In this document: positions 30,545 through 55,974 of the stretch, piece after piece
Layout of the letters: each line of letters starts with the position of its first letter
How positions within the stretch are numbered: the first letter of the stretch is position 1
Assembly: GCA_000004985.1 (NCBI GenBank)
Contig: GG738874.1
DNA: 64,000 bases
Source: Naegleria gruberi
Lineage: Eukaryota
Reading direction: 5' to 3' (one strand)
Notes under the pieces: model-generated
What the model saw: only the letters and a program-made list of their open reading frames with translations
The model's database searches: none
What the model was told of the DNA's origin: nothing
Program-made: the position numbers and the translations under genes

Positions 30545-32174
30545 ATGACCAACAACACTCAGACTTCGCCACCACCTGAGGCTGGTTCTCCAGAATCTAA
30601 TAGACCTTCATCGCCAATGAATTCTTCCACCACTACTTCTTCATATTTAAATGACAATAATTCATCACCACCTTTGGAAGGAGCAACTAATCAAACTAAG
30701 AACACAACGACTGCATCTTCGCCTCCTATTCATATCTCAACAACAGATACATCCTATTGGAAACAAAACAAATGTTTCGTCTAATGTTTCCATTAAGAAA
30801 GTAGTAACCATTGCATCACCTTCTTCAGTAAACAAACCACCAGCTCAATCACAAGCTGGTATTGTCAATCAGAGCGAAAGTGGTAGATCAGGAGGTTCTT
30901 TCAGTCACAGTAAAATCACCGTACGAACATGTTGTGGTGTGGTTGAGTTGACTTCAATGAAATTAGCTTGTTTACTTGGTATGATGGTTACAGTAATTGG
31001 TTTATTAGTTTTGGCAGCTGTTGCCATTGCTGCCTTTGTTACTGCTAGCTCAAAAGCAACCGACATTTTGATTGCTGTTGGTAAAGCTACAACTATATTC
31101 GAAAGTTCAAATTCAATGGTTCTGAAATATACCTATACTGGATATTCATATGATGGTCAGAATATTGTCGTTCAGGAACAGTATAAGAATTCATCAACAA
31201 CTATGAAAATACTCCTTCAATCAATTTTTAAGAATTTGGACGATTCTACCATTCAAACCATGTTCAATTCGACTGTTATTGAATCTTCCAATTCATTGGA
31301 TTCACAGAATTCTCAAATTTTATTAATGATTGGTTACAATCAACAGAGTGATGCCATTACAAGAATTAATTCAGATACCTATTCCACTATTTTGTCAACT
31401 TTCCAAGATGGTTTGGATAAGTTGGTGACATTTGTGCAACAATCTGAAAAGAACAAAGACACGAGTGTGTTGGCAATTACTTTGGTTCAATTGATTGTCA
31501 TTGCTATTTCATTATTTGTCATTTTGCCAATCATTGTGTTTGTCTTTACTTATGCCATCAATCGTGACTCTTTGTATTTGGAGAAGATTCGTCGTGCCAA
31601 TGCCATCATGTTGATGGACACTATGGAGGATGATGGATTGAGAACATTATTTAAGATACATTGTGAAAAGGAAAAGTCAACTGAAAACTTTTTACTTTTG
31701 GAAAAGATTCAATATTATAGATCATTGTGTGAACGTTCATTGGATTTACAAATGAGATTATTTGGTGATGCCAATATGTTGAGTGATGTTTCGAGTGATA
31801 TTTCAGCAGAATCTGCTCATTCTACAAAGAAGAGGAGGGAATCTCCACTCGAAAAGGAATACACAGAAATTGAAGCTAAAAAGTATGAAGTTGCTTTTGA
31901 GATATTTACTGAATTTTTGGAAGTTACTGGTGATATGGCTGTCAATATTTCTCATGTTCTAACTGATTCTGTTAAGGATAAGCTTGATAAGTATAACGAC
32001 AAGCAAATTGAAACACTTCCCGATGATATGTTCAATATTTTGGAGAAGGAAACTTGTTTGGTAATGATGGATACTCACCACAGGTTTAAGCAATCACTTG
32101 CTTTCCAACGTGAAATGAAGATTGATAAGATTAAGATTGACAAACTGAAAAAGAAGAGAAATGTAGATTTTTAA
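30545..32174 (+). CDS. membrane-anchored RGS (regulator of G-protein signalling) domain protein, paralog 1; frame discontinuity near 30770-30790
   Basis: The N-terminal S/T/N-rich ORF (30545..30784, ATG 30545) is +1 out of frame with the main ORF (30651..32174). The main ORF has CCGVVELTSMKLACLLGMMVTVIGLLVLAAVAIAAF (a TM anchor), an extracellular/luminal S/T-rich stretch, and a second TM (LVQLIVIAISLFVILPIIVFVFTY). The RGS core is FKIHCEKEKSTENFLLLEKIQYYRSL (compare FxxFLxSEFSEENLEFWLA). It shares 60-80% identity over long blocks with the gene at 59303..60889. Confidence 0.75.
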
Positions 32175-34960: not shown

Positions 34961-36091
34961 ATGAGATCATCAAGAAAATTACTCAAACTTGCTCCATTAT
35001 TTGCTGTAGCTTCGTATGGAGTTATATCAATGAAGGATACAGATCTTGTCTCTAAATTTTTTAATTATGATCGTAAACAGTTCTATCATCAATTCATGCC
35101 AAATCATCACTTTCTAGTTCAGGCCGAGGAAGAAACTTTGAAACCACAATCTGGTGTGGTGACTGGTAACTTCCCACAAATGGCAATTATCAGCATTAAA
35201 TTGAAAGATTACAAGAATTATGAAAAGGTTTTGAAAGCAGTTTCTCTTGTTCCTTCAATTGTTGAGGAATTGACAGGAGATAAACAAGTCGATGCAGAAG
35301 ATGAATTTGCATTGCCACCTGTCATGATTAATGTTGCACTGAGTACTAGATTTTGGAACTTTTTAAATTCAAAAGATGGAGCTACCTTCAAAAAGCCAGA
35401 AGGTTACACTAAGGATTATGAAACTAAAACAGGAGAGTTTGGTTCAATGCCATATAAGGAAACTGAAATTGTCTTGCATGTAAAGGCAGAGAATACCTCA
35501 ATTTGTTATCAAGCCATTGATCAATTTTTGTCCAATCTCCCAAAGGATGCACTTGAATCAGTGAATGAACATTACGGATTCCAATATCAAGATTCAAGAG
35601 ATTTGAGCAAATTCATTGATGGTATCAATAATCCATCCGGAAATGATGATCGTTCAGTAGCTGCTCTCAATTCACAAAAGGGAAGTTTCCTCATTCATCA
35701 AAAGTGGGTCCATCACCACCATTTAGATTCCAAATTTTCAGTTAAGGATCAGGAGGCATTCGTTGGAAGGGAGAGAGTTTCTGGAGCCGAATTACCAACT
35801 CTACCACCCTCTTCACACGTTGCCAGAATGAGACGACCAAATGGTGATATCATTCCAATTGTGAGACAGAGTTTCCCTTATGGTACAGTGAGTGGAGAAC
35901 ATGGATTATTGTTCATTGCTTACAGTAATAACATTGAAAAGTATGAAACTCTATTGGATGCCATGGTTGGTAAAGTGCACGGCAAACATAATGATGCCAT
36001 CATGAAATTCTCCAATTGCCACTACTCTAATTATTATTACGTTCCATCCATCAATGAATTGAATTCTATCAAGACAAAATTTAATAAATAA
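34961..36091 (+). CDS. DyP-type (dye-decolorising) haem peroxidase with about 50-aa N-terminal hydrophobic/basic extension
   Basis: Single exon, ATG in an ACAACAATG context. It carries the DyP hallmark GxxDG-type motif KFIDGINNPSGND, a proximal His region SSHVARMRRPNGD, and the C-terminal LLFIAYSNNIEKYETLLDAMVG. The N-terminus MRSSRKLLKLAPLFAVASYGVIS looks like a signal or transit peptide. Confidence 0.8.
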   Translation: MRSSRKLLKLAPLFAVASYGVISMKDTDLVSKFFNYDRKQFYHQFMPNHHFLVQAEEETLKPQSGVVTGNFPQMAIISIKLKDYKNYEKVLKAVSLVPSIVEELTGDKQVDAEDEFALPPVMINVALSTRFWNFLNSKDGATFKKPEGYTKDYETKTGEFGSMPYKETEIVLHVKAENTSICYQAIDQFLSNLPKDALESVNEHYGFQYQDSRDLSKFIDGINNPSGNDDRSVAALNSQKGSFLIHQKWVHHHHLDSKFSVKDQEAFVGRERVSGAELPTLPPSSHVARMRRPNGDIIPIVRQSFPYGTVSGEHGLLFIAYSNNIEKYETLLDAMVGKVHGKHNDAIMKFSNCHYSNYYYVPSINELNSIKTKFNK

Positions 36092-36422: not shown

Positions 36423-39400
36423 ATGCTTAAAAATTCAAGAGCTGGTCTTTTGACCCTATTGTTGTTTATCGCATGCTTGATAATTAGCATGGAGGAGCAA
36501 CATGTTGAGGCTCGTGGTGGTAGATATTACAGATCACTTGTACAGGTAAATAATATTATAATATTTTATTGTATTAACATGAATAATAACAATAGAAATG
36601 TACATCTTGGGGAGATCCACACATTCGCAAGTTTGGGCGAGGTGGCTTTGACTATTATTCCATCAGTGAATATACACTGGCAGAGACTTCTGACAAGGCT
36701 TTTATTATGCAGGTCAGAACTGGTCGTCTTGTCAGTGTTAGTGGTAATACTGCATTTGTTATTAAATTTGATGGAGAAACAACTATTGAACTAATTGCTC
36801 AATGCAATTGTTTCAGATTGAATGGAGAACCTATTGATATTGCTCTCAACAAACCATTACAATTGACATCAAAGGGATCTACTCTCACGAGACCAAGTGA
36901 ATTTTTCGGTATTTTCAAATCAGCAAATGGTGCTACCATCATGTACTCATTCTTTTCGAGGGGAGAAACTCGTTATCTTGATTTCAGTATTGATGCACCA
37001 ACTAACCTTAATTTCTCACATGGTTTTTGTGTTAGTTCTGCTAAGGGAGCCATTAATGACAATCTCTTCTACAAGCCTCTTGAAAAGACTAGAACCATCA
37101 AGGCATCAAGTGTAAATAATAAGCTTTTCGATAAGGTAACCGATACCCAACAACAAAAAGCTGAGAATACTTGTAAGAAGGCAGGAATAGACCCTAAGAA
37201 ACATCCAAATGACTATAGTTCTTGTGTAATTGATGCTTTGATTGATCCAAAGAATGCCAAACAGATTGCCAAAGGAATGGTCAAGAATCAAAAGAGGGAA
37301 GAAAAAGCAGCTATTTCTGTCGCTAAGGATACTATTCGAACAATGGATAAGAAGGATCTGGTAAAATTTATTTCCAAAATAGTTGTTTCTGAGGAAAAGA
37401 AGAAGGCTGCTGTTCAAGAAACAAAAACTCCAAGTGCAAAAACTGTTTCCAAGACTTTGAAGGCATTGTCTGTTGATAACTTGATCAATACATTGGATAA
37501 GATTATTGACAATAAGAAGGTTACCGTAAAAACCATTAATTCTACAAAGAAGAAACAAGAAAAGGAACAACATAAGGCTAAAAACAATTCCGAAATGAAA
37601 CAAACTCAAGGTGTTTCTCCAAAAGTTACTGAAAACAAATTTAAACAAGAAGTTCAAAAAATTACTGAAGGAAAGAGTCCAGTCAAGAGATTGATTAAAA
37701 CCAAGTCAATTGATGACAAGCCAATAACAGTTGAAAAAAAGATTAAATCAAAGGTTGCTCAAGAGTCTCTCGTACCAAAGAAGAATGTTGAAAAGAGGAC
37801 ACAACAAACTTCAAAGATCAACTTTGGAAAGAATGACACCACCTTTAGAAAGAGAAAGAAGCAGACTTCTACAGCAACAAAGAAAGAAGCCAAACCAAAG
37901 AAGAAGTCAACCAAGGTTGAATCTGATTTCACTCAATCTTTTGATTCCAAACCAGTTGTCGAAAAGAAGAAGCCAAAAACTTTAAATATTGAATCTCAAT
38001 CTGTTTCAACTAAAAAGCCAGCAACCTCTCAAAAAATTACTGAGGGAAAGAGTCCTGTTAAGATATTGATTAAAACCAAGTCAGTTGATGACAAGTCAAT
38101 AACAGTTGAAAAAAAGATTAAATCAAAGGTTGCTCAAAAGTCTCTCGAACCAAAGAAGAATGTTGAAAAGAGGACACAACAAACTTCAAAGATCAAGTTT
38201 GGAAAGAGAAAGAAGCAGACTTCTCCTTCCACAAAGAAAGAAGCTAAATCAAAGAAAGCTGATGATGAAGAAATGAAACCAAAGAAGAATTCAACCAAGG
38301 TTGAATCCACTCAATCTTTTGATTCCAAACCAGTTGTCGAAAAAAAGATTAGTCCAGTTACGAGATTTATTACAACCAAGGCGGTTTCTACAAAGAGTGA
38401 TCAAGAAACTAAACCAAAGAAGAAAAAAGAGGTTGAAGCGCCAAAGAAGAACTCAAAAACTACTTCAGAAAAGTCCAAGAAACAATCAAAGAAATCAAAG
38501 AAGCAAGTTGAGCAAACATCTGAAAAATCAGGAAAGAAAAATACAAAGAAAGTTTCCAAGAAGACAACTGAAATCAGTGATTCTTCAAAGAAGACATCTG
38601 ACATCAAAGAAACTAAACCAAAGAAGGGTAAGAAGTTGGTCAAGGATAGCTCTGAAAAGAAGGTTAGTAAATCAGTGAAATCATCAATGAAGACAAAATC
38701 AAAGAAGGAAGTTGATTCTCAACAAGATATACCAAAGAAGACCTCTGAAGGCAAGGAAACAAAACCAAAGAAATCTGCCATTTCAAGTAAATCTGTCGAT
38801 TCATCTCCAACCATTAAGCAAGAAACAAAACCAAAGAAAGGGTCTTCTGGAAAGAATGGTAATGTTTCAAATGAAACACCACAGAAATCAAAGAAGGAGG
38901 ACTCCAAGATTTCTTATCAAGAAAAGAAGCAAAAAAAGAAGGTAAAAAAGGTAAAGAAGGGAGCTTCAACATCTAGCAAAAAATCAACCTCTGAAACAAG
39001 TGCTAAATCAAAGAAGGATAGTTCTCGAAATGAAGATGAAATTTCAATTCCTTCCAAGAAATCAAAGGGTGGAAAGAAAAAGGATTTAACTAGTTCAGTT
39101 GATGCTGCAAAAAAGCAAAAGAGCAAGAAGGAACAAGTTCAAAGTAATGATGAATCCACAACCATTCAAAACAAAAAGAAAAAGAGAAAGGACACAAGCA
39201 CTTCTAACTCTTCTGTCGAAACTCCAAAGAAGGACAAGGCTTCCAAGAAGAACGCTAATTCTGAAGATGAAGCACCAAAGCTTAGAATTCCAATTAGGAA
39301 ATCCAGACAAGCTCAAGGTAATGAAGAAACACCAATTCAATCAAAGAAATCAAAGGGTGGTAAGAAAAAGATTCCAAAGGTAGATAAATCCAACAAGTCG

Positions 39401-40426
39401 GAAAAATCACAAGATAAACCAAAGCTCAGAATTCCATCCAGAAAAACCAGTCCATCTCGAGATGATGAAGAAGTACCAAAACTTAGAATTCCAACTAGAG
39501 GTCAATCCAATTCTCCAAAGAATGCTCCAAAGCAAAGTGAAACTTCATCTCAACAAAGAATCGAATCAGGTATGATGACTATCAAGTCTGTTGATTCTGT
39601 TCCAGTTACTGTTGAAAGAACCCAAAAGAATACAATCTCTACACCAAAGGTTAGAATTCCAACCAAGAAAGGGAAAGATTCAAAGAAACAACCAAAGACT
39701 GAATCAATAAGTTCTTCTCAAAATGAAAGTGCAATTGACTTGGCTTCTGAGAGAGTGGAACCAACTCGTCGTCTTCGTGAAACAGCAACAACAGAATCAA
39801 GTGGTAAGAAGAAGAAGGAAACTGTTGAATCTGCTCAACAAATTCCTTCCGAAGAGGTTAGAGAAGTGAGCGAACCAGCCCTTTCTTCTGAAACATCAAA
39901 ACCAACATCCAAAGGTAAACCAAAGGAAAAGAAATCCAATAGAAGATCCAAGAGAACCTCTCACAATGTATCCCGTTATGTCCCAATTGAGAAAAGTCCA
40001 CAATCCAGAGCTGTAGAAAAACCAACATCTGTGAATCAATCTATTAAGACCATCATTAATGTTCCTACGCCTGCAGTTCCAAAACAAAAACAATGTAGAC
40101 CCTCCAAAGTACCATCCCCAGATAAGAAATTGATCTCACAATTGTCCAAGTTGAAGAGAAGAAACGAGAAATTAGCTCGTCATCTCAAGCAAGTTACTCG
40201 CTTCAATCAACAACAAACAGCTTGGAATAGAAAGATGTCCCAATCTCTTCGTTCTGAACATGAAAGTAAGGACAGATTAAAGCACTATCTCCAACGATTA
40301 AGACTTGAATTATCTGACCTAGAGAGAAGTAATCAATTTCAACAAAATCAACAACCAACTGCCGTTACAAATGATAACCAGCAATCTATCGTTCTCAATG
40401 TTGTAGGTTCACCAAATTTACAATAA
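36423..40426 (+). CDS. secreted giant polycationic Lys/Ser/Thr/Pro-rich repeat protein with N-terminal vWD-like (GDPH) domain, paralog A; exons 36423..36545 and 36596..40426
   Basis: Exon 1 encodes a signal peptide (MLKNSRAGLLTLLLFIACLIISM...) and ends in phase 0 before GTAAAT. The 50-nt intron ends AATAG at 36595. Exon 2 starts KCTSWGDPHIRKFGRGGFDYYSISEYTLAE, the von Willebrand D-domain opening C.SWGDPHY.TFDG..Y.F.G.Y.L. About 1100 aa of KK/PKK/SKK-rich repeats follow, including two near-identical copies of about 180 bp at 37661..37842 and 38036..38217. The tail is a Q-rich coiled coil. About 1317 aa. Confidence 0.7.
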
Positions 40427-40908
40427 ACAGTAATTTACAACGGCGTATAATATACTTCCTACTGTTCCCATGAAGGGCGAGGATTTTTATTGTATTAATA
40501 AATAGAAAATATATCTAGTCCATCTCTTACATCACAATTAATTGGATTCACCACCACATAATGTGATCAAGAATATGATGAACTCCAGTTACCTTAAAAT
40601 TCCTTAGCTTTGAAGAATTACCTGTGTTGCTTATCCCGCAAAATCCTTATACACGTAACTCCCACAAAGCTAGAGATGGCTCAATATGGCAATTGAATGA
40701 TATTACTAGACCAAAAGAGGCTATTGAGGATTCACTTCAGCAGTTTGGTGTGCTATTTAGCAGCGAAAAACAAGTGAGCGAGATTCTAGATGTACAGTAA
40801 ATTGTTATCCGAACTCACAGTATAAATTCACTTTGTACATCTAAATTACCGTTCACTTTGTGATTCATCCTTATCATCTATAAAAAAACAACATAAAGCC
40901 ATACTAAG

Positions 40909-43900
40909 ATGTCATCGAGAGATTTATCCTATTCATTCTTGATTGTTTCCTTGTTGTTACTTGGCATGTTGCTGGGAGTACATGCTGCTGGTCCTGCAGT
41001 TATTAATGCTAAATCAGTCATCAATGCTGTTGTTAAGGTAAGTGTTGATAGTTGAAATTCTGTCGGTTGATATCGTGTTTTTATCTCATTCAACCTTACT
41101 CCTCATTAAATTCCATCCTTAATGTTTCCATTCAATGCCAATAGAAATGTGTTTCTTCAGGCGACCCTCACTTGAGAACATTTAGTGGTACAAGATTTGA
41201 CTATTATTCTGTTGGTGAATATGTCTTGGCTGAAGCTGCCGACAAATCCATCATGATTCATGCTCGTACTGGTAAATTGAATGCTGTTTCTGGTAACATT
41301 GCTGTTGCTTTAGCACTGGACCAGGAAACAGTTTTGGAATATCATGCTAACGGTGCTTACTTTGTTATTGATGGTAAGAACGCTACCATTAAATCTGGTG
41401 AAACTGTTTCATTGGGAACTAAGGGAGCATCTGTAACATATAACAAAGGAAACGTTGCTGTTAAGAGTAGTTCAGGAGCTTCTGTTGACTTGTATGGTTG
41501 GTCCGTCCCAAACCAACTCTCATATTTTGACATTTCCTTTGAAGCTCCAACCACACTTGATATTAATTATGGTTATTGTGTCAGTCAATCAATGGGTACT
41601 CAAAAGGATGGAAGTTACTTTAACAAGCCAATTAAGAGAGTTGCATTGATCAAGACTGCTAGTATTAATGCTGAGCTCAAGGAAGCAACTCCAGAAGAAA
41701 AGAAACAAGCTCGTGCAGCATGTTCTAAGATTTCTGAAAAGGACCATCCAAATGATTTCAAATCGTGTTACACTGATGCCTTGCTCAACCCAGAACTTGC
41801 TTCAAAGTTTGCTAAGGGTATTGTTGGTATGCAAAACATGCAAAAGGTATCAATGAAGGAAGTTGCTAAGGATGCCCTTTCACAAATGGATAAGAAGGAT
41901 ATTGTCAAGCTTGTAGCTAAGGCTACTGTTTCAGAAGCTAAGAAGAATGAAGTTCCAACCGCTTCCACTCAAAAGATTACTTCTGCTTTGAACACCTTGT
42001 CAACTGACAAGTTACTTTCAACATTGGATAAGGTTATTGATAATAAGGCTACTGTAAAGATTGATCCAAAGGCCACCAAACCAGTCGAAAAGAAGATTAC
42101 TCCAGCAAAGGTTGCCGTCAAGTCTGTTGATGCTAAGGTTCCAGTTGTCATGTCTTCCACCACTCAATCTTTAAAGCCAATTAAATTGGTGGAAACTCAA
42201 AAGGTTGTTGAAAAGAAGGTTGAACAAGTTGAAAAGAAGACTGAAACCCCAAAGGTTGTCGAAAAGAAGGTTAAAACTAAGGCTGAAAAAGTTGAAACAA
42301 AACCAGTAGAGAAGAAGACCAAGCCAGTCGAAACTCCAAAGGTTGTTGAAAAGAAAACAGTTGAATCCAAGCTAGTTTCTTCACCAAAGAATTCTACTCA
42401 AACTGTTTCCAAACCAGTTTCTACTGTTAAACCAACTAGTCAGCCAAAGAAACCAGCTACCAAGCCAAGTACTAAGAATGAACAACCAAAGAAGGTACAA
42501 CCAAAGATCAGTAAGCCTGCAGCAAAGACTTCAACCTCTCCAAAAGTTGCTGCCAAGTCTGTTAACTCCAAGCCAGTTTCCGCTCAACCAAAGAAGCCAA
42601 CTTCTTCTAAGCCAATTACCAAGCCAACAATTCCAGTTATTGAAAAGAAGAATACAGCTGTTCCAAAGACAAATTCTACTCAAACTGTAAAGACTGAAAC
42701 CAAGCCAGTCTCAGAAATTAAGATTTCTTCTGTTCAATTCAAGTCAGTCAAATCACCAAAGGTTGTTTCCAAGAGTACTGAAACTATCAAACCAATTAAA
42801 CAGAAGTCTGAAAAAACGAAACTAGTAACAAAGATCGTTTCTGCTCAACCAAAGCCAACAACCAAAATATCCAAACCAGCCTCTAAAACAGAAACTCCCA
42901 AGCCTGCTGCTAAGAGTTCATCCTCTACAAAGGTTGCTGTGAAGTCTGTTAAATCAGTTGCTCCAAAGAATGCTCCTGTCAAGTCAGTTTCTCCAAAGTC
43001 TTCAACCAAGAAGCCAGTTACTGAAAAGAAGGCAACCACTTCTAAGCCTACTATCAAGACTTCAACTTCTCCAAAGGTTTCTGTAAAGTCTGTAAAATCA
43101 GTTCCAGTTAAAAAGGCTCAACCAAAGAAGTCAACCTCTTCAAAGCCGGCTACTTCTAAACCTATTACCAAACCAGTTTCTACTAAATCAACTAGTCAAC
43201 AAAAGAAGCCAACTGCTACCAAGACAAGCACTAAGAATGAACAACCAAAGAAGTCTTCAACAACTCCAAAGGTTGAGACAAAATATTTTGAAAAGAAGTC
43301 TGAAACTTCACCTATTAAGGTTGCCTCTGTTTCATCACCAAATGTTGTCAAGTCAGTTGCTGAAAAGAAGCCAGTTACTAAACCAGCTACTCCAAAGAAG
43401 ACAACTACTTCTAAGCCAGCTACAAAGACCTCTCCAAAGGTTTCTGTAAAGTCTGTAAAATCAGTTCCAGTTAAGAAGGCTCAACCAAAGAAGTCAACCT
43501 CTTCAAAGCCAGCTACTTCTAAACGTGTTACCAAACCAATTTCTACTAAACCAAGTAGTCAAGCAAAGAAGCCAACTGCTACCAAGAGTTCATCCTCTCC
43601 AAAGGTTGTTAAATCAGTTCCAGTTAAGAAGGCCCAACCAAAGATCAGTAAGCCTGCAACAACGACTTCAACCTCTCCAAAAGTTGCTGCCAAGCCAGTT
43701 TCCGCTCAACCAAAGAAGTCAACAACCTCCAAGTCTTCTGCTTCTAAATCTGCTACCAAGACTTCATCTCCAAAGGTTGCTGTAAAGTCTATCAAGTCAG
43801 TTCCAGTTAAGAAGGTTGAAGATTCAATTAAGGTTGCTTCTGTTTCATCACCAAAGATTGCTGTAAAATCTGTAAAGCCAGCTTCTCCAAAGAAACCAAC

Positions 43901-45434
43901 CAAGAAGTCAGTTGCTTCAAAGCTTGTTAAGTCAAAGACTGCTGAAAAGCTAGTTTCTCCAAAGAAGTCAACTACTAAAACAGATACTCCAAAGAAGGCC
44001 CAACCAAAGAAGTCAACCTCTTCAAAGCCGGCTACTTCTAAACCTGTTTCCAAACCAGTTTCACCAAAATCAACTAGTCAACAAAAGAAGCCAGCTACCA
44101 AGCCAAGCACTAAGAATGAACAACCAAAGAAGTCTTCAACAACTCCAAAGGTTGAGACAAAATATTTTGAAAAGAAGTCTGAAACTTCACCTATTAAGGT
44201 TGCCTCTGTTTCATCACCAAATATTGTCAAGTCAGTTGCTGAAAAGAAGCCAGTTACTAAACCAGCTACTCCAAAGAAGTCAACATATTCTAAGCCTGCT
44301 ACAAAGACTTCATCCTCTCCAAAGGTTACTGTAAAGTCTGTCAAAACCGTTGCTCCAAAGAAAGCTACTCCAAAGAAGTCAGAAAAGAAATTAGAGGAAA
44401 AGAAATCAAAGACTGTCTCAAACCCAAAGAAACAAGTTTCCAAGACTGAAAAGCCAAAAGCTAAACCAACTTCTCAACAAAAAAAGCAAGATACCAAACC
44501 AAAGAAAAGTTCAACAACTCCAAAGGTAGAAACAAAACCATTTGAAAAGAAGTCTGAAACTTCATCAATTAAGGTTGCTTCTGTCTCCTCATCAAAGCTT
44601 GCTGTAAAGTCTGTTTCTACTAAACCAAAGATTGCTGTTTCTCCAAAGAAACCAACCAAGAAGCGAGTTGTTGAAAAGAAGTCAACTACTAAGAAGGCTC
44701 AACCAAAGATCACTTCTCCTAAATCTGCTACCAAGACTTCCTCTCCAAAGGTTGCTGTTAAACCTCAATCAGTTACTCCTAAGTTTGCTGTAAAGCCTGT
44801 TGCTTCCAAATCAAAGATTGCTGTCAAGCCAGTTTCTCCAAAGAAACCAACCAAGAAGCCAGTTATTACAAAGCCTACTGCTCCAAAGATTTCAGGTAAA
44901 TCAAAAGTAACTCCAATGCAATCAGGTGTCAAGATTCCAATTCACAATGCTCCAATGCAAGTTGTAAAGAAGCCAGCTGGAACAGTCAAGAAGTCAAACA
45001 AGAAGTCACCAAAGAAGCCACACAAGAAGTCACAAAAGAAGAGAGATGCCAAGAAGAGTTCACAAGCCAAGCCTGCCAGACCATCTTCTCAAAATGTTAA
45101 CACTCAACAAGTTAATGCTTCTCCAGTAGTCAACGTTCCAGTCTCTGTTCAATTGCCAGCTCAACCAATTTTGGAACAACAAGAAAGATTCAACAAAAGA
45201 CAATCTTCTTGGAATCAATATGTTCAAAACACTTTCAGAAATGAAGCATCTATCAAGGGACAAATTAAGAATTATTTGCTTAAATTGAAGCAAGATGTTG
45301 AACAATTAAGAAGAGATAACACTGCTCAAAAGGAAGCTCTTCAAAGATTGAGAGCCCAACAAAGTGTTAGACCAAGTGGCGCCAACTTTAGTGAAAAGGT
45401 TCATGATTTGATTGGAGCCATCAAGAGTATTTAA
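40909..45434 (+). CDS. secreted giant polycationic Lys/Ser/Thr/Pro-rich repeat protein with N-terminal vWD-like (GDPH) domain, paralog B; exons 40909..41037 and 41145..45434
   Basis: Exon 1 has ATG 40909 and a signal peptide (MSSRDLSYSFLIVSLLLLGMLLGVHA); it ends phase 0 before GTAAGT at 41038. The 107-nt intron ends CAATAG at 41144. Exon 2 starts KCVSSGDPHLRTFSGTRFDYYSVGEYVLAE. The gene is colinear with paralog A through the vWD-like domain, the PNDxxSC...LDKxIDNK block and the C-terminal coiled coil. The repeats are SPKV/KSVKSVPVKKAQPKKSTSSKPATSKP-type. About 1472 aa. Confidence 0.7.
43116..44385 (+). repeat. internal direct repeats within paralog B: about 385-bp near-identical copies at 43116..43500 and 44001..44385 (period 885 bp), plus related partial copies
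   Basis: The DNA string aaggctcaaccaaagaagtcaacctcttcaaagccggctacttctaaacc ... aatgaacaaccaaagaagtcttcaacaactccaaaggttgagacaaaatattttgaaaagaagtctgaaacttcacctattaaggttgcctctgtttcatcaccaaat recurs with only a few substitutions. Confidence 0.8.
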
Positions 45435-45692: not shown

Positions 45693-47408
45693 TCAGTCAA
45701 CTGAATGTCGGATTCTGTAAAAGCTGTACTCATCAAGAAGGTGTTTGATATTTGGTAACAGCTTAGCCTTATTGATCTTTTTACACCCATTGATATAAAT
45801 CTTTGAAATATTATTACATTTTTTAACAATACTATTAATTGTCTTCTCAGTAATTTCACAATACTGAAGATCTATTTCTTCTAGGTTAGGTAAATTGGAA
45901 AGAGTCATACCACTCTCATCATGTATTTGATCTTGACTCAAATTTAAAAGGAAAACCTTTTTCAAACTTGTTATCATTGAAATATGCTTTGTTCCGATAT
46001 CTCCACAAGTTGAGCTTTGTGTAACAGATAATAGCTCAAGGTTAGGGAGGTTCTTAAGGTATTTGAAATCATCTCTTTCATGTCCACGTGTACAATCAAG
46101 ATACAGACTTTTAAGAGACACTAATTCTGAAATACCTTCAAACAATTGTGAATTAATCTTTGTGTGTTCTAAATCAAGGAAAGTAAGCGTTGAAGGTAGT
46201 CTATTAAAGGTCGAAAGACAAATTGAGTCGTGTCGAACAGTCAGCTTTTCAATTTTCAAGTCGCTGAGAGCTTTTAAGAACTCTGTTTGTTCATCTCCTA
46301 TTGCTACTTCAATTGAGCGTGAGTAAGAAGATTGAATTGATACATTCACTTCCTTCAATTCTTGCCAGTTTCCAATAAAATTTCCACATTTTCCAATGGA
46401 GACAGAAGATTCAATTATTAGTTTTTGAAGTTTAGGGGTTGATTTGGAAATTTTCTCCATGCTTTCAACAGAAAAATAATCTCCCAAATAAGCAAATTCC
46501 TTCATGTTTTGAATTTTACAGATGGAATCAGAAGCCTCAGCCATGCTGAAAGATTTTTGATACATGTACCCTTTCGTAGGCATGTTGGTGTATCCAAGTC
46601 TTACTATTTCAAGGTTTGGAAAATTATTTGCTCCAAACTCAACAGCACTTTCAAAGGTCTCCAATCTTTGCAAATCAATTTTGGTTACCTTTTCACAAAG
46701 TGACTTATCCTTTTCAAAAACATTTGAAATATAGGTGAGTCTTTTGGAAATTCTTTCTTCTAAATCTGTTGGTGCTTTTCTTCTATCTACAATATTCAGC
46801 CAACACATCGTTCTAAAGTAGTCGTCAATTGGTAAATTAAGACTTGTCATTATTGTTAACAAGCGGTGATATTCAGTTGCAGAACGACGATCATCAATAG
46901 AAACTACTGCAGCTCTCTTGAAAATCAATTTTGGGGCAGTGTCTGTTCCTCTGTTTGTGAACTTTCCAAAATATTGCTTATAAAACAATGATTCATCAAA
47001 TTTCAATGAATTTAAATCTATTTCTCTAGTAGGAATCACTACAGGATTCAAACAAACTTTAAATCCTGGTCCAACATAATAATCTAAAATTTCTAAAACA
47101 ATTTCTGGAGGAAGAATACTCAACAACTCTTTATCCAAACCCTTCTTCACTGGCTTTTTTGTTTCCTTGTTTGCTTGATTAGTAGTACTTGCAGTTTTAG
47201 TAATCTTCTTTCTAACTACAACCGGATGTTTTTTAGATTGTTGAGGAAGTGGATTTGATGTACGTGAGGGTGAATTTACCTTACTTGATCCGCCATAAAT
47301 AGAGACTGCCTTCTTATGAGAAGTTTCTGGTTGAAAGTTTGGCTTTGAATCTCCATCTCTTGCCTTGATAAATTTATTGTTGGGTGATGGCTCTACAGTT
47401 TTTTTCAT
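45693..47408 (-). CDS. F-box / leucine-rich-repeat (FBXL-type) protein
   Basis: Continuous ORF. The likely start is the third in-frame ATG (plus 47406-47408, context CAAAAAAAATATG); the track start at 47489 is an upstream in-frame ATG. It has a basic S/T-rich N-terminus, then an F-box (LSILPPEIVLEILDYY), then repeated LxxLxxLxL units (NLPNLELLSV, LSNLPNLEEIDLQYCEITEKTINSIVKKCNNISKIYINGCKKI). Confidence 0.7.
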   Translation of the reverse strand: MKKTVEPSPNNKFIKARDGDSKPNFQPETSHKKAVSIYGGSSKVNSPSRTSNPLPQQSKKHPVVVRKKITKTASTTNQANKETKKPVKKGLDKELLSILPPEIVLEILDYYVGPGFKVCLNPVVIPTREIDLNSLKFDESLFYKQYFGKFTNRGTDTAPKLIFKRAAVVSIDDRRSATEYHRLLTIMTSLNLPIDDYFRTMCWLNIVDRRKAPTDLEERISKRLTYISNVFEKDKSLCEKVTKIDLQRLETFESAVEFGANNFPNLEIVRLGYTNMPTKGYMYQKSFSMAEASDSICKIQNMKEFAYLGDYFSVESMEKISKSTPKLQKLIIESSVSIGKCGNFIGNWQELKEVNVSIQSSYSRSIEVAIGDEQTEFLKALSDLKIEKLTVRHDSICLSTFNRLPSTLTFLDLEHTKINSQLFEGISELVSLKSLYLDCTRGHERDDFKYLKNLPNLELLSVTQSSTCGDIGTKHISMITSLKKVFLLNLSQDQIHDESGMTLSNLPNLEEIDLQYCEITEKTINSIVKKCNNISKIYINGCKKINKAKLLPNIKHLLDEYSFYRIRHSVD

Positions 47409-48230
47409 ATTTTTTTTGAGCATGAACTTGCCTTGATGTTTTAACTTGTGCGTTACGCAAAATAGGTTTAGAATGGTAATATCACACATCTACTCTACTG
47501 TGGGTATTATTAAATCATTATTTGATTCTACAGGAACGTTCAGGAGAAATTCTTGTCCTTTCAATCCTTTGGAAAAATCATTTTCTGAAATTTCTGATAA
47601 TTCCATAATTGGAGGAGATTAATTGTACCTTTGAAACCAAAAAAAAAGAAATAAAAATAAGGAAAATGAAGAATATTATCCTGCTATTGATTTGTAAAAA
47701 GAGTATTTTTTGTTGTAATAATATTAAACTTATATTCTTTCCAATTTTCAATTCTTAAAAAAAAAGCAAAACAATCCAAAGGCTTCCAATATCATCAAGC
47801 CTAACAAAAATTACAAAGCCTTTAAATTCCTCCAAACCATCAACAACTTCATCATCGACAACTATTGATAGTCGTGATGTAATTAAATTAATGTTACAAG
47901 TTTGTAGGGGAAATACCATGATTGAAGGTTATATTTGAATGGATAGAATTATCGGAAGGTTTTTAATGAATATTCATGTGATTTCTAATGATTTTAAGAG
48001 AGGAAGAACCTGCTAGATTTAAAAAGTTGGAACATGTTGTAAATAATGCAAAACATTTTGATAATTTAATTGCCTATGATATAAATATTATTGGAAACGC
48101 AATTCAATATCAAAAAGTTAAACAAGGGTGATGATTTTATTAGATCATACTATTAAGAATGTTAAAAAAGCATCGGAGAAGTCCATTATTACTCCACACC
48201 TGAAAACCTTTTCTCAAGAATTTTCACCAT

Positions 48231-48402: not shown

Positions 48403-51400
48403 ATGCCACACCCCAAAGCAATGTTCAAAAAAAGAACACACACAACGTTTCTCTCTATAGTGTATGCAAAAATGATTAAGGCTAGAAGGAGTAACTTTTC
48501 ACTTTTAATTGGGGTTGTCTTGGTGTGCATGATTGCATTCTTGAGCATGTATGCACATGCCGGTAAGAGCTCATCAGCACCACCACGAACTGCTGCTCCG
48601 TCCGTGGCTAGAGCTCAACTACCTCCACAGCCAGTTTCAAGAGCACCTCCGATGGCACAACCAATTTCAAGACAGGCAACTCCACAACCTGTATCAAAAC
48701 CAACTCCAGTTTCTAAACCAGCTGCTGCTCAACCTATTGTTGCCAACGTTAATGAAAAGAAATCTTTCCCAAAGAAAGGAGATCCATCTTTTGTTGGACC
48801 TGTTCAACCAAAGAAACAATCATCAACACCAGCTACTTCTAAACCAGAAGTTCCAAAGGCAGGCGCCAAGAACAAGCCTGTCGTGGATATCAAGAAATCT
48901 AATGATGTTATAGTAGCAAATGTTAATGATAAGAAATCTGGTAGAAAGAAGGAAGAAACAAAACCTGAAAAGACTGTTGAACACAAGAAAGACAGTACAT
49001 CTAGCAAGATTGAAAAGAAATCTGAAGAATCAAAGCCAGACACCAAGGTGGAACACAAATTTGATGAAAAGAAACCTGATATCAAGTCAAAGACTGAAAA
49101 AAAGAAAGAAGAAAAGACATCTTCTCATAAGGATGATGTAAAGAATTCTGAAAAGAAGGCCCAGAAATCTGAACTTAAGGAAGATAAGAAATCTGAAAAT
49201 TATAATAAGATGACCAATGAGAAAAACAAGATGAATGATAAGAAATCTGATGTAAAGAAATCTTCAAAGAATTTAGAAGAAAATAAGAAGGAATCCGTTG
49301 AGCATAACAAGGCTAATAAGGATTCTGAAACTTCCAAACCAGATTCCAAAATGCAAGTCAAATCATCAGAAAAATCAAATTTAAAAAAGGATGAAAAAAA
49401 ATCCGAACATAAGGAGGATAAGAAATCTGATAAGAAATTTGATAAGAAAAAGAAATCTGATAACAAGAAGGATGAAAAGAAATCTGATGACAAGAAATCT
49501 ACCGAAATCAAATCTGATAAGACTGATCATAAGAAATCCAATAAGGATGATAAGAAATCAGAAAAGAAGGGTTCAACCGATAAGAAGAAGACTGATGGTG
49601 AAAAGTCAGATAAGAAGACTAAGGATGTAAAGTCTGATAATCCTGATTCTAAGAATACTAGTAAATCAAAGAAGTCTGTTGATAAGAAGAAGACTAACAC
49701 AAAGAAGGATAAGAAGACCAATAAGGAAGAAAAGAAATCTGTAGAAAAGAATGAAAAGAAAATAGGAAAGAAGTCTACAAATACAGCCACAAAGAAGGAT
49801 ACTACCAAGTCCACTAAGAAAACTGATAAGAAATCCTCTGAAAATAAGAAGACAAGTGGATCCAAAAAGGCCGAGCCTAAAAAGAAAACCAATTCAACCA
49901 AACCTGGAAAGAAATCTAGCACAAAGAAGCTCTCTAGTACGAAATCAAAATCTATTGGAAAGAAATCTGATATTAAGGAGGGTAACAAGAATGCTAAACC
50001 AAAGACCACTGATACCGGTAAGAAATCAGCTTCTGATAAGAAATCCAAGTCAGACAAGAAATCTGAAAAGAGCCCAACAAGTGTAAAAAAGGATAAGAAG
50101 AGTACCAAATCAAAAACTGAAAAAAAGTCAACAACTAGAATGAAATCCAAGGATGTTAAAAAGCCAGGAATGACACCAAAATCATTTGATAACATGTTTG
50201 CTCAACAAGCTAAAAAGTTGTCTCAACCAACAAGTCCAGTCAAACCAAACACAAAGTCTGACAAGAAGTCCAACAAGCCAAAGAAATCAAACACTGGTAA
50301 GAGGACCTATTCCAAGAAGAATGATAAGTCAAAAACTAGTTCCAAGAAACCTGGAAAGAAATCTAGCACAAAGAACCTAGCTGGTAAGAAATCAAAATCT
50401 ATTGAAAACAAATCTGATGTTAAATCCACAAAATCAGGAAAGAAGTCTTCAAAAAATACTGGCAAAAAATCTGGAAAGAAATCTACCAACAAGTCTGGAA
50501 AGAAATCAACTAAAAAGAGTAAGAACACTACTAAGTCTGGAAAGATATCCAATACTGGAAAGTCTGGAAAGAAATCAAAGAATGGTAATACGAAATCAGA
50601 TAAGAAGACCAAGAAATCAGAAACTGGTAAGAAATCAAAAAATTCCAAAGGAAAGAAGGATAGTAAGAAATCAAAGAAATCTACCAAAAAATCAGTAACG
50701 TCAACTAAAACAACTAGTAAGAAATCTAACAAGTCTGGAAAGAAGGCTTCTAAGAATACTGGCAAGAAATCAGGAAAGAAATCCAATAAGCCTGGAAAGT
50801 CAAAGAAGATACCCAAGAAATTAGGTAAGAAGGGTTCTAAAAAGGCTAACCAACCAAGCAAATCCAGTAACAAGTCTGGAAAGACCTTAAAGAATGGTAA
50901 ACCAAAGAAATCCAATACTGGAAAGACATTAAAGAATGACACATCAAAGAAATCAACTAAAAAGGGCAAGAACGGTACTAAGTCTGGAAAGAAATCAAAA
51001 TCTGGTAAGAAGACTAAGAAATCAGAAACTGGAAAGAATTCTGGAAAGAAATCAAATACTGGAGAGAAAAACAACAATTCTTCTAAGAATAATAAGAAAA
51101 AGAACTTGAATGGAAAGAAGGACAAGTCCAAAAACAAATCAACTAATTTAAAGAATAATAAGAACACCAATAAGAAGAGTGCAAACAAATCAAGGAATAA
51201 CAAGAACATGACTGAACAAAAGGAAGAATCTGAATCATCTTTTGGCACACCAGATTCTGAGGAGAGAGAAACTCCATATTCTGAAGATGGACCAATAATA
51301 TTATTAAGAGATGATAACATCTTATCTAATTCTTACAAACAAAGAGGAATTGAAATTGAAGATGAACCAGTTAAAGTAGTTGAAAAGAATAGTATGAAGG

Positions 51401-52608
51401 TCAAGCAAGTCGATAGTGAAATTGAACTATCTAGTGATCAAGATGAAGAAAGGCCACTCCAAATTTCTAAGAGGCAAGTTGAAAAGTCAATTCAAAGAAA
51501 CGATTTTGAAGACAATGAGGAACCAAAGGTCTCTAAATCTAAACAAGACGCTGAAAAATCCGAAGTTGAAAAGACCATTCAAAGAAAAGAGAAACACCAA
51601 GTTGAAGATGAAGAAGAAGCCCCTCAAAAGAAGTCTGTAAAAGGAAAGCATGATAAGAAATCTGGAAAGAAATTGAAGAATGAAAGATCAAAGAAGTCTG
51701 GAAAGTCTGTTGCTAAGAAAGGCAACAGGTCTGGAAAGAAATCAAATAATTCCACAGGAAAGAATGGCAATAAGAAATCAAAGAAATCTGGAAAGAACAC
51801 CAAAACAACAAGTAAGAAGTACGGAAAGAAGCTCACTAAAAAGAATACCAAGAAATTAGGTAGGAAGGGTTCTAAGAAATCTGTAATTAAACCAAAGAAA
51901 TCCAATCTTTCTTATGGTAAGGATTCTGGAAAGAAATCTTCCAAACAATCCAGAAAAGTGGAATATGAAGATGTTGAATATCCAATTCAAAGAAACCAAA
52001 AAAAAAGAAAACAACAAGTTGATGAAAAACCTCCTCAAAAGAAGTCTAGAAATATTTCAAAGAGACAGCAGCAAGATGAAGAAAGATTTATTCTACAATA
52101 TGAAAAGAAATCTGGACACAGAAAGGTTAATAAGAAATCATCCAAGCAAGAATTCGAAGAAAACCGAGCTCCAAAGAGGCAATATGTTGAATTTGATGAA
52201 GAAGTTCCTCAAGAGAATTCCAAATCTGGAATGGATATCTTGACCTATAGAACAAATCCAATCAATATCAATAACCATCAACCTCAAAAAAGAATGATCA
52301 ATAGAATTACCCCTCAAACAGTATCTCAATTAAGACCAATCGAATCAAATGCCCCAGCTATTACTAATCCACAAATTTATCATCCATTTGTTAGACCAAA
52401 TAACTTTGTTACCACTGCTCCACCAGCTATTGCTCGACCAAATAACTTTACTCCTCAAACACAATCTCATGATGAAACTATGAATCTGCAAAATATTGGT
52501 ATCAATCTTGTCACCAACAATCCAACTCCTACAGCTCCAAATCATAATGTTAACAGAGCCAGAGTTGTACAAGCTTTGAGAAAATTGATTGCCTCTATGA
52601 AGAAATAA
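48403..52608 (+). CDS. giant Lys/Ser-rich low-complexity protein with N-terminal signal-anchor and conserved C-terminal module (family C/D, member C)
   Basis: Single 1401-codon ORF; in-frame ATGs at 48403 and 48472 (the latter with an AAAAATG context, MIKARRSNFSLLIGVVLVCMIAFLSMYAHAG). After a Pro/Ala/Gln-rich stretch come about 1000 aa of KKS/DKKS/GKKS repeats. It ends in a roughly 110-aa non-repetitive module (...INRITPQTVSQLRP...NLQNIGINLVTNNPTPTAPNHNVNRARVVQALRKLIASMKK) shared with the next gene. Confidence 0.6.
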   Translation: MPHPKAMFKKRTHTTFLSIVYAKMIKARRSNFSLLIGVVLVCMIAFLSMYAHAGKSSSAPPRTAAPSVARAQLPPQPVSRAPPMAQPISRQATPQPVSKPTPVSKPAAAQPIVANVNEKKSFPKKGDPSFVGPVQPKKQSSTPATSKPEVPKAGAKNKPVVDIKKSNDVIVANVNDKKSGRKKEETKPEKTVEHKKDSTSSKIEKKSEESKPDTKVEHKFDEKKPDIKSKTEKKKEEKTSSHKDDVKNSEKKAQKSELKEDKKSENYNKMTNEKNKMNDKKSDVKKSSKNLEENKKESVEHNKANKDSETSKPDSKMQVKSSEKSNLKKDEKKSEHKEDKKSDKKFDKKKKSDNKKDEKKSDDKKSTEIKSDKTDHKKSNKDDKKSEKKGSTDKKKTDGEKSDKKTKDVKSDNPDSKNTSKSKKSVDKKKTNTKKDKKTNKEEKKSVEKNEKKIGKKSTNTATKKDTTKSTKKTDKKSSENKKTSGSKKAEPKKKTNSTKPGKKSSTKKLSSTKSKSIGKKSDIKEGNKNAKPKTTDTGKKSASDKKSKSDKKSEKSPTSVKKDKKSTKSKTEKKSTTRMKSKDVKKPGMTPKSFDNMFAQQAKKLSQPTSPVKPNTKSDKKSNKPKKSNTGKRTYSKKNDKSKTSSKKPGKKSSTKNLAGKKSKSIENKSDVKSTKSGKKSSKNTGKKSGKKSTNKSGKKSTKKSKNTTKSGKISNTGKSGKKSKNGNTKSDKKTKKSETGKKSKNSKGKKDSKKSKKSTKKSVTSTKTTSKKSNKSGKKASKNTGKKSGKKSNKPGKSKKIPKKLGKKGSKKANQPSKSSNKSGKTLKNGKPKKSNTGKTLKNDTSKKSTKKGKNGTKSGKKSKSGKKTKKSETGKNSGKKSNTGEKNNNSSKNNKKKNLNGKKDKSKNKSTNLKNNKNTNKKSANKSRNNKNMTEQKEESESSFGTPDSEERETPYSEDGPIILLRDDNILSNSYKQRGIEIEDEPVKVVEKNSMKVKQVDSEIELSSDQDEERPLQISKRQVEKSIQRNDFEDNEEPKVSKSKQDAEKSEVEKTIQRKEKHQVEDEEEAPQKKSVKGKHDKKSGKKLKNERSKKSGKSVAKKGNRSGKKSNNSTGKNGNKKSKKSGKNTKTTSKKYGKKLTKKNTKKLGRKGSKKSVIKPKKSNLSYGKDSGKKSSKQSRKVEYEDVEYPIQRNQKKRKQQVDEKPPQKKSRNISKRQQQDEERFILQYEKKSGHRKVNKKSSKQEFEENRAPKRQYVEFDEEVPQENSKSGMDILTYRTNPININNHQPQKRMINRITPQTVSQLRPIESNAPAITNPQIYHPFVRPNNFVTTAPPAIARPNNFTPQTQSHDETMNLQNIGINLVTNNPTPTAPNHNVNRARVVQALRKLIASMKK

Positions 52609-54810: not shown

Positions 54811-55974
54811 TTAAAATTGACAATTTATCATTAAATCTGTTAGTTTCTGAGCTATCATTGATTGATAGCATCTTTTCAATGTTGTCTTCTCGAATAAACA
54901 ATTAGAAATATAGTGGTTATTTTTCTCGTTACTATTCACTACATATTTAACCACTTGTGAAATGTCAAAATCAGATATCGACTTGATAATGTGATATTCT
55001 GACACATTTCCATTACCTGTTCGTAAATAGTTAGATATAATTGTATTGACAACATCCCTCTCGTGATAATCGTTTACAATTTGTTCAAGTTCTGGCATTA
55101 ATTGAGCTTCAAAAGGTCTTTCAAATTTGATATAATTCCTCAACTTTTTCATCATTAAATCTGGTTTGGTAAAGAGAAGAATTATTCTCGTATTCGAATG
55201 ATTTCCAATCAATTCCTTGTAGAGTTTCAAACTTTCGTCCATTCTATTAACCTTCTCATCTCCATAACATGTTTGATTAAATTCTGAAAGAGAAACTACA
55301 TAAATCAAAACTGAAACTTGATTTTCCAAACAATATCTCCACTTTCGTCTTTCATGAATTTTTCCACCTGCTGTCACAAATGTCAATCTATTCTTATTAA
55401 AAATAACACTATAATCAATTATTCCAGAAGATCCTCCCTTAATATAAATATCTGGAATAAACCTCTCTCGATTCTTAATTTTTGACACAAAAATGTCAAC
55501 ATTCTCAAATAAATTCAATGTATCCTGATTAGTTCTATAAATCTTTCTAAATCTATCATCATTCCACAATGCAACAAGTGCATGATCATCAAAATTTCCA
55601 TTCGGTACCTTTTCATTAATAATAAACTCAACTGTCCTATCACTCGATGACGATGACGATGAGTACAAAATTTGTTGAATGATAATTCGTGAAATTGTAT
55701 TCGTATCGACGTGATAGAAAGAGTCGGAAGTTTTATCGATGGAAGTAAAATGTTCCTTCTTTCTATTTTCATATCGAATCATTTCACAGATGGTTGTCTT
55801 TCCACTTGATGTGTTTCCAAGGAGGACGAATCTCTTTTCTTCCACGTCGTCATTAGCAAGATTATTCGAATGGTTATTCGAAGGAGAAGACGAAATAAAC
55901 GTGTTTTGAATTGCGTTACTGTTAACGACGTTGGCGTGTTGCTGTTGTTGAAGTGTTGAGAGCTTCCCACCCAT
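54811..55974 (-). CDS. divergent heterotrimeric G-protein alpha-subunit-like protein with non-canonical catalytic residues
   Basis: ATG in an AAAAAAAAATG context. MGGKLST is an N-myristoylation consensus. The P-loop is LLGNTSSGKTT. The block PDIYIKGGSSGIIDYSVIFNKNRLTFVTAGGKIHERRKWRYCLENQVSVLIYVVSLSEF...VNRMDESLKLYKELI...ILLFTKPD is colinear with G-alpha switch I / switch II / NKxD regions (DVLRTRVKTTGI...DVGGQRSERKKWIHCF...NRMHESMKLF...ILFLNKKD). The switch-II Gln is Lys, the switch-I Arg is absent, and NKKD is TKPD. 387 aa. Confidence 0.75.
   Translation of the reverse strand: MGGKLSTLQQQQHANVVNSNAIQNTFISSSPSNNHSNNLANDDVEEKRFVLLGNTSSGKTTICEMIRYENRKKEHFTSIDKTSDSFYHVDTNTISRIIIQQILYSSSSSSSDRTVEFIINEKVPNGNFDDHALVALWNDDRFRKIYRTNQDTLNLFENVDIFVSKIKNRERFIPDIYIKGGSSGIIDYSVIFNKNRLTFVTAGGKIHERRKWRYCLENQVSVLIYVVSLSEFNQTCYGDEKVNRMDESLKLYKELIGNHSNTRIILLFTKPDLMMKKLRNYIKFERPFEAQLMPELEQIVNDYHERDVVNTIISNYLRTGNGNVSEYHIIKSISDFDISQVVKYVVNSNEKNNHYISNCLFEKTTLKRCYQSMIAQKLTDLMINCQF

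Follow-up and report, generated by a model that had tools for sequence, protein, structure and literature searches.

Within a 64,000-nucleotide stretch of the Naegleria gruberi genome (contig GG738874.1 of assembly GCA_000004985.1; hereafter the window, whose positions serve as coordinates throughout), two adjacent genes on the plus strand, gene 1 (36423..40426) and gene 2 (40909..45434), encode giant proteins built on a single plan: a predicted signal peptide, a von Willebrand factor D (VWD) head bearing a GDPH motif, a helical C8-like module, a polycationic tail and a C-terminal amphipathic helix. The original prediction, made from the letters of the window, had proposed such a same-strand pair with one shared architecture, and its coordinates and reading frames hold. 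We give an even chance to the reading in which both genes encode secreted, mucin-like, polycationic matrix proteins that cleave themselves, bind polyanions and multimerise. New in this work are the corrected gene structure, the C8-like partner of a protist VWD domain, and the family-wide coupling of such a head to a polycation.

Gene structure and signal peptides

Both genes consist of two exons. In gene 1, exon 1 (36423..36545) starts with the ATG at 36423 and encodes the signal peptide and, after it, RGGRYYRSLVQ, a short basic linker; it is followed by a 50-nucleotide phase-0 intron (36546..36595, GTAAAT...AATAG), with the donor GT at 36546 and the acceptor AG ending at 36595, and by exon 2 (36596..40426). 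In gene 2, exon 1 (40909..41037) starts with the ATG at 40909 and encodes the signal peptide and the linker AGPAVINAKSVINAVVK, the 107-nucleotide phase-0 intron (41038..41144, GTAAGT...CAATAG) has its acceptor ending at 41144, and exon 2 spans 41145..45434. Exon 2 of gene 1 opens with KCTSWGDPHIRKF and that of gene 2 with KCVSSGDPHLRTF. Both spliced coding sequences are divisible by three and in frame. Given the intron lengths of 50 and 107 nucleotides, retention of either intron would shift the frame, as illustrated by the read-through open reading frame (ORF) 36423..36794 of gene 1. The predicted arrangement, a phase-0 intron followed by an exon that opens with KC.S.GDPH, was recovered in both genes, with GT..AG splice sites.

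The N-termini have the features of signal peptides. The h-region of gene 1, LTLLLFIACLII, has a hydrophobic window with a mean Kyte-Doolittle value of 3.24 and precedes a probable cleavage site after VEA, while that of gene 2, LIVSLLLLGMLL, precedes a probable site after VHA; in both cases the hydrophobic core is followed by small residues at positions -3 and -1 (V-E-A and V-H-A). The pattern of a signal peptide ending in VE[AGS], with R as the first residue after the cleavage point, recurs in the homologues P0003, P0008, P0009 and P0010, and each of the seven N-termini that are complete and come from named genomes or long contigs has a 12-residue hydrophobic core (mean Kyte-Doolittle value 2.9-3.6). 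These sequence features lead us to infer that the products of genes 1 and 2 enter the secretory pathway. Exon 1 had been proposed to encode a signal peptide and nothing else; the signal peptide is present, and the exon adds a linker of about 10-17 residues. Since cleavage is predicted after VEA or VHA, the mature chain would start with this linker and strand β1 (KC.S.), rather than open with GDPH as had been suggested.

Gene 1 corresponds to the database entry XP_002676076 (NAEGRDRAFT_49892, D2VIT9; P0001 here), a 'predicted protein' that is the best match of the family profile. Its reference model starts at Met23 and splices from 36545 to 36713 (acceptor 36712). The 39 codons skipped in this way encode KCTSWGDPHIRKFGRGGFDYYSISEYTLAE..., the best-conserved stretch of the family and of VWD domains generally, and their removal would delete strands 1-3 of the sandwich predicted by AlphaFold2 (AF2). 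Furthermore, an uninterrupted run of signal peptide, linker and KC.S.GDPH is found in N. fowleri P0009 (...SVEG, then, after the cleavage point, RRRRVVRATPTIKRCQSLGDPH), P0010, Willaertia P0008 and N. gruberi P0003. Because the skipped block is conserved, because strands 1-3 need it, and because the homologues run from the signal peptide straight into GDPH, the 36545/36596 junction is favoured and the reference model of gene 1 is probably wrong; the homologues likewise support the 41037/41145 junction of gene 2. For a paralogue, P0002 (XP_002677408, NAEGRDRAFT_48959), the reference model begins at the corresponding internal site (MAQARTGKL...), and the same annotation defect is therefore probable; this model, too, probably hides a signal peptide and a VWD/GDPH head. 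The present analysis thus corrects the automated model of NAEGRDRAFT_49892 and probably also that of NAEGRDRAFT_48959.

On the alternative that the reference annotation is correct, translation would begin at an internal Met or the GDPH block would be skipped, and the proteins, without a signal peptide, would act as intracellular (for example nuclear or nucleolar) Lys-rich proteins resembling histone H1, their likeness to VWD being a relic. XP_002676076 and XP_002677408 are modelled in this manner, and the SPKK/KK-rich tails do recall those of histone H1. However, this reading would discard the conserved codons and the three strands described above, it conflicts with the four homologues that keep the signal peptide, linker and KC.S.GDPH, and the four conserved, co-varying cysteines of the head (see below) point to an oxidising compartment. 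In view of the signal peptides, the conserved GDPH block and these cysteines, we rejected the intracellular reading, which we regard as very improbable.

A VWD head with a GDPH motif

In gene 1, the VWD-like β-sandwich (36596..37036) contains Cys43 in strand β1, GDPH at 36611..36622 and the end motif G-F-C186; in gene 2, the VWD domain (41145..41585) contains Cys45 in strand β1, GDPH at 41160..41171 and the end motif G-Y-C188. The two heads are 40% identical over 308 columns (about 305 residues; tblastn E = 2e-69). The gene 2 protein matches Pfam VWD (PF00094) with 23.8 bits (cut-off 22.9, E = 6.2e-5), and the membership of gene 1 follows from its identity to gene 2 and from the family profile. 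This profile, the AF2 model and the residue counts given below are all based on A2, an alignment of 23 family heads. Pfam VWD matches 20 of the 23 heads, with a best E-value of 2.3e-10, while RGM_C matches six. Against the PDB, the A2 profile found FCGBP first (6.6e-39), followed by MUC5B, MUC5AC, Cypridina luciferase, MUC2 and VWF.

With A2 as the input, AF2 yielded a head model with a predicted local distance difference test (pLDDT) score of 88.9 and a predicted template modelling (pTM) score of 0.76, in which the strands lie within residues 2-142 and the helices within residues 171-266; an alignment of two sequences as the input gave an unusable model (pLDDT 50). When the head model was compared with the PDB by Foldseek, the best 45 matches were VWD proteins only. 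In agreement with the vWD-like N-terminal fold that had been proposed, by all tested features of the sequence and of the predicted model the head is a VWD β-sandwich of the VWD superfamily, and belongs to its GDPH-bearing subset, the one that includes the self-cleaving domains of FCGBP, MUC2-C, MUC5AC, MUC4, SUSD2, RGM and BMPER. Naegleria has been named in passing among the few protists with VWD domains (Lang et al. 2016, PMC4948705).

In the AF2 model, GDPH (residues 6-9) sits between strand 1 (residues 2-5) and strand 2 (residues 9-11). The same position between strands 1 and 2 has been described for GDPH in FCGBP D10, where mutation of either Asp or His abolishes cleavage (PMC10880436). 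Across the family heads, the motif is well conserved: H is found in 23/23, P in 22/23, D in 21/23 and G in 18/23. Two cysteines, Cys2 and Cys145 in model numbering, the latter in a conserved G-x-C just past the last strand, each occur in 21/23 heads. The sole heads that lack either one, P0039 (N. fowleri) and P0087, lack both, and this joint loss supports a Cys2-Cys145 pair. The pattern fits a putative disulfide that would retain strand 1 after cleavage, a link that the canonical self-cleaving arrangement requires.

A reduced C8-like module

The VWD sandwich is followed by a helical module. In gene 1 (37169..37516), it comprises a two-cysteine hairpin, Cys234...Cys251-x2-Asp, and then an N. 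gruberi-specific block ending with L..LDKIIDNK; in gene 2 (41718..42047), the hairpin is Cys236...Cys251-x2-Asp254, and the subfamily block ends with LDKVIDNK. The hairpin cysteines (Cys193 and Cys208 in model numbering) are invariant in the 23 heads. A shared block of about 150 residues had been noted at this position; it divides into a two-cysteine C8-like module, which is common to the whole family, and a remainder extending to L..LDK.IDNK, which is specific to the N. gruberi subfamily.

In the Foldseek comparison, targets with both VWD and C8 align with the head model over 199-212 residues at about 3.3 Å, whereas the VWD-only targets (RGMB, vitellogenin and an FCGBP fragment) align over just 122-148 residues. 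The difference in length corresponds to about 60 residues of the helical block, which are matched to C8 in the superposition. In addition, in five of the six matched FCGBP D assemblies, sub-threshold and individually insignificant profile matches place A..C.KAG...(13-17)...C.xD at the C8 position. Two of the eight C8 cysteines are present in the helical module, and four cysteines with C8-like spacing are kept in some uncultured relatives. The structure comparison points to a reduced C8-like partner of the protist VWD domain in the helical block. In the domain-evolution summary of Lang et al. 2016 (PMC4948705), VWD of protists is not combined with C8; contrary to that summary, our results suggest a VWD+C8-like unit outside animals and choanoflagellates.

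Polycationic tails and the C-terminal helix

The gene 1 protein has 1317 residues, with 19.7% Lys, an isoelectric point (pI) of 10.1 and a net charge of +166; the gene 2 protein has 1472 residues, with 20.6% Lys, a pI of 10.4 and a net charge of +231. Both values agree with the pI above 10 that had been estimated. The gene 1 tail (37517..40198) is of low complexity and rich in Lys, Ser, Thr and Glu, with a net charge of +9 to +21 per 100 residues, and contains a 179-nucleotide direct repeat that is 95% identical (37654/38029). The gene 2 tail (42048..45185) is rich in Lys, Ser, Thr, Pro and Val, with a net charge of about +17 to +28 per 100 residues, and contains interspersed units including SPKV[AS]VKSVKSVPVKK and QPKKSTSSKPATSKP. 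The tails measure about 900-1050 residues, with 0-4 aromatics per 100 residues, and their sole cysteine is Cys1208 of gene 1. Some of the internal DNA repeat copies are 94-99% identical, indicating recent expansion. Repeats of more than 1000 residues resembling SPKK had been described for both proteins. Cationic tails of about 1000 residues are indeed found in both, whereas SPKK-like motifs are frequent in gene 2 alone (30, as compared to four in gene 1), and the gene 1 tail has less Pro and more Glu.

Each protein ends with a block containing a conserved amphipathic helix. In gene 1 (40199..40426), the helix RFNQQQTAWN...LERSN is followed by a Q/N-rich end and the stop codon, and in gene 2 (45186..45434), the helix RFNKRQSSWN...LRRDN is followed by the last residues and the stop codon. 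The two blocks are 36% identical over 53 residues (BLASTP E = 3e-10).

The family in Naegleria and its relatives

Searched exhaustively with the family profile, 1.84 billion representative proteins gave 440 matches; a word-index homology search found no matches with the gene 2 head and four proteins with the family profile. Besides gene 1, the N. gruberi members are gene 2, P0002 (NAEGRDRAFT_48959), which has a K/P/V/T tail, and P0003 (NAEGRDRAFT_59485), which has two tandem heads and a K/R/A tail. Further members are FDP41_005632, FDP41_012263 and FDP41_011818 of N. fowleri, C9374_012355 and C9374_004053 of N. lovaniensis, ABK040_003113 of Willaertia magna, and about 12 metagenome proteins of uncultured protists. 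The contig of P0087 is eukaryotic, and P0162, a homologue from N. lovaniensis, is encoded at the end of its contig, beside unrelated genes. The members cover the VWD part of the head, mostly together with the helical Cys-Cys block. In the databases, the family carries only the names 'predicted protein', 'hypothetical protein' or, automatically, 'VWFD domain-containing protein', with no function. The original prediction could not place this architecture in any described family; no reference genome assigns the family a function. In the literature search, the locus tags and accessions of its members were unmentioned.

The tails of the family are mutually non-homologous, being of a disordered K/S/T/P type in genes 1 and 2 and of a helix-like K/R/A type in P0003 and P0008-P0010. 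On the other hand, the net charge outside the head ranges from +8 to +39 per 100 residues in 21/21 members, as compared to a median of -3 for the other VWD matches. As the tails are unrelated and yet all net positive, it is the charge, not the sequence, that is conserved. The family, which includes the pathogen N. fowleri, always joins a GDPH-type VWD head to polycationic regions.

In P0005 (N. fowleri FDP41_005632) and P0007 (N. lovaniensis C9374_012355), a S/K/R-rich region of 640-1100 residues precedes the VWD head. After cleavage at GDPH, the whole of this N-terminal region would hang on the β1 disulfide alone. Alternatively, these two models may each fuse two tandem genes.

The charge conservation also bears on the idea that the proteins are prey-capture or antibacterial effectors, in which the polycations would agglutinate or permeabilise bacteria, extracellularly or in phagosomes, while the VWD head would recognise or anchor them. 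Binding to the surfaces of microbes has been reported for the VWD domains of vitellogenins and haemolectins, and the high positive charge density throughout the family, the fast-evolving repeats with nearly identical copies and the multiple paralogues would suit proteins that face other organisms. However, proteins of 150 kDa with a mucin-like layout and a C-terminal block for multimerisation look more like a structural polymer than like a toxin that diffuses, and they are without an amphipathic membrane-active segment. We consider the effector role quite unlikely.

A proposed mechanism

The features described above can be combined into a model of how the proteins may work as matrix components. 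The signal peptide, as judged from these proteins and their homologues, would route the chain into the secretory pathway, where the head is predicted to fold as a VWD sandwich packed on the two-cysteine C8-like module, as indicated by the HMM, profile and structure comparisons. Autocatalysis at the Asp-Pro bond of GDPH, as in FCGBP, MUC2 and RGM, may then cleave the head within this pathway. The β1 peptide would be kept attached through the disulfide between the β1 cysteine and the cysteine of G-x-C, as supported by their co-loss, leaving a cleaved, disulfide-linked head; in FCGBP, such a linkage stabilises the domain. By its composition and the family-wide positive flanks, the tail may behave as an extended, disordered polycation and a multivalent binder of polyanions. 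Its candidate partners range from the envelopes of bacteria and acidic polysaccharide of wall or slime to DNA, polyphosphate and the surfaces of minerals or the substratum. The C-terminal amphipathic helix, and possibly the head as well, could join the chains into a multimeric network or glue. Within this model, a plausible setting, somewhat short of an even chance, is an adhesive or slime matrix outside the amoebal cell; a component of the cyst wall or plug is possible at a lower probability, and a prey-binding or antibacterial use of the matrix is a fainter possibility.

Several points weigh against the matrix reading. As modelled in the reference, gene 1 has no signal peptide and lacks the 39 residues KCTSWGDPH...FIMQ, and with them GDPH. 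The gene 1 protein by itself falls under the Pfam VWD threshold. The helical module gave no match to Pfam C8 at a threshold as loose as E <= 10, and the module is therefore named C8-like on structural grounds only. Both the Asp-Pro cleavage and the disulfides are inferred. O-glycosylation of the tails (about 30% Ser+Thr, and up to 16% Pro in gene 2) may mask the charge or alter its behaviour. The N-terminal position of the low-complexity region in the N. fowleri and N. lovaniensis homologues means that the logic of head, spacer and coil is not universal. Finally, for none of the family members did the literature search return transcript or proteomic data, a localisation or a binding result.

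A broader and more doubtful proposal, which we put forward tentatively, is that heterolobosean amoebae and related uncultured protists possess a gel or glue system of their own, in which a self-cleaving VWD+C8 core of the animal mucin/FCGBP type is combined with polycationic spacers. If this is true, the D-assembly core with GDPH autoproteolysis would predate animals or have been exchanged with them, and adhesion, slime, cyst plugs or bacterial capture in amoebae would rest structurally on these proteins. Should the proteins indeed form the matrix with which Naegleria adheres, builds its wall or binds prey, studies of attachment, encystment and feeding could take them as candidates, and those of N. 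fowleri would be candidate surface or secreted antigens.

Genomic surroundings

Four polycationic genes lie within 36.4-54.8 kilobases, and the products of at least three of them appear to be secreted. The third giant gene (48403..52608, plus strand, probable ATG at 48475) encodes about 1377 residues rich in Lys, Ser and Asn, with no VWD head; it has a clear signal peptide, MIKARRSNFSLLIGVVLVCMIAFLSMYAHA, with the cleavage point before GK, and a C-terminus ending in ...NRARVVQALRKLIASMKK. The fourth gene (53078..54805, plus strand) encodes at least 575 residues rich in Lys, Ser and Thr; its ORF is open upstream to about 52740, and K-rich coding text extends upstream of the first ATG. These two genes have two C-terminal blocks in common, NRI[TA]PQ.V.Q..P.E and NL.TNNPTPTAP...RAKVAAALRNLIASVNK.

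This clustering bears on a further alternative, that the proteins are cyst-wall or ostiole-plug proteins, which the cell would produce only on encystment, pack into vesicles and use to cross-link acidic or fibrillar wall polysaccharide electrostatically. Protist wall proteins usually join a secreted, Cys-stabilised head to a long, repetitive, low-complexity spacer, the layout seen here, and the family is kept in the cyst-forming Naegleria and Willaertia. The clustering on one strand within 18 kilobases of at least three, possibly four, secretory polycation genes suggests components of one material. Against this, the literature search gave neither stage-specific expression data nor a Naegleria wall or secreted protein like these, and no cellulose- or chitin-binding domain was present in the scanned N-terminal 360-372 residues, the tails lying outside the scan. 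This encystment role is, in our view, unlikely but credible.

Immediately upstream of gene 1 lies a Dyp-type peroxidase gene (34961..36091, plus strand; EFC43331, D2VIT8), which matches Pfam Dyp_perox_C at 1.7e-30 and has the hydrophobic N-terminus MRSSRKLLKLAPLFAVASYGVIS; a link between this enzyme and matrix cross-linking is speculation. Its accession directly precedes that of P0001, and the two entries together assign the window to N. gruberi strain NEG-M. A leucine-rich-repeat (LRR) protein gene (45693..47489, minus strand), with weak LRR matches and a basic Ser/Lys-rich N-terminal region, lies on the opposite strand and separates the VWD genes from the other two polycationic genes. The cluster is flanked by signalling genes for a G-alpha subunit (54811..55974, minus strand), a PAS-domain adenylate/guanylate cyclase (61268..63985, minus strand) and an RGS-domain protein (30651..32174, plus strand). 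Phe/Leu-rich antisense ORFs are found at 50307..51320 on the minus strand and, as several minus-strand frames of 60-180 residues, within 37.1-44.7 kilobases. We rejected these as genes; they are by-products of the AAG/AAA-rich coding of the plus strand.

Comparison with known systems

The Naegleria VWD of Lang et al. 2016 (PMC4948705) concerns the same organism and the same domain, and that account gives no architecture and no observation on GDPH or polycations. As for the repulsive guidance molecules RGMa/b/c, the present proteins have no RGM_N match, no glycosylphosphatidylinositol (GPI)-anchor signal and no hydrophobic C-terminus, whereas RGMs, which act as co-receptors in animal signalling, measure about 400 residues and have no polycationic tail. 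Membership of the RGM family was rejected, given the absence of RGM_N, the weak RGM_C match of gene 1 (14.6 bits, cut-off 27) and the lack of a GPI signal.

The tails also have analogues of composition. In SPKK/KK composition, chiefly that of gene 2 with its 30 [ST]PK motifs, they resemble histone H1 tails and the KSP repeats of neurofilaments; those proteins are intracellular, whereas the proteins described here carry predicted signal peptides and an extracellular-type domain with a putative disulfide. Plant extensins, Lys-rich wall glycoproteins and the cements of mussels and sandcastle worms are secreted, repetitive Pro/Ser/Lys-rich polycations that bind acidic polymers or surfaces. The likeness to these extended chains is a functional analogy with no sequence relationship: the Naegleria tails are without Tyr/DOPA (dihydroxyphenylalanine) cross-linking motifs, and the VWD head is absent from those families.

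The D assemblies of mucins, VWF and FCGBP differ from the present heads in several respects. Their C8 module has eight cysteines, whereas the helical module here has two and is unrecognised by Pfam C8; they carry TIL, E, VWC, CysD and cystine-knot domains, none of which is among the Pfam matches of our heads; and the animal VWD has several disulfide-capable pairs, as compared to one here. Membership among the gel-forming mucins was rejected, since the heads have no Pfam matches to TIL, E, VWC or the cystine knot (CK) and the tails are nearly free of cysteine. Nevertheless, the overall layout is alike. In mucins, multimerisation involves the CK knot, where the candidate here is a C-terminal helix, and the spacer is a neutral or anionic glycosylated Pro/Thr/Ser (PTS) domain, where here it is a polycation with 20% Lys and a pI above 10. 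The proteins thus resemble mucins with the charge of the spacer reversed.

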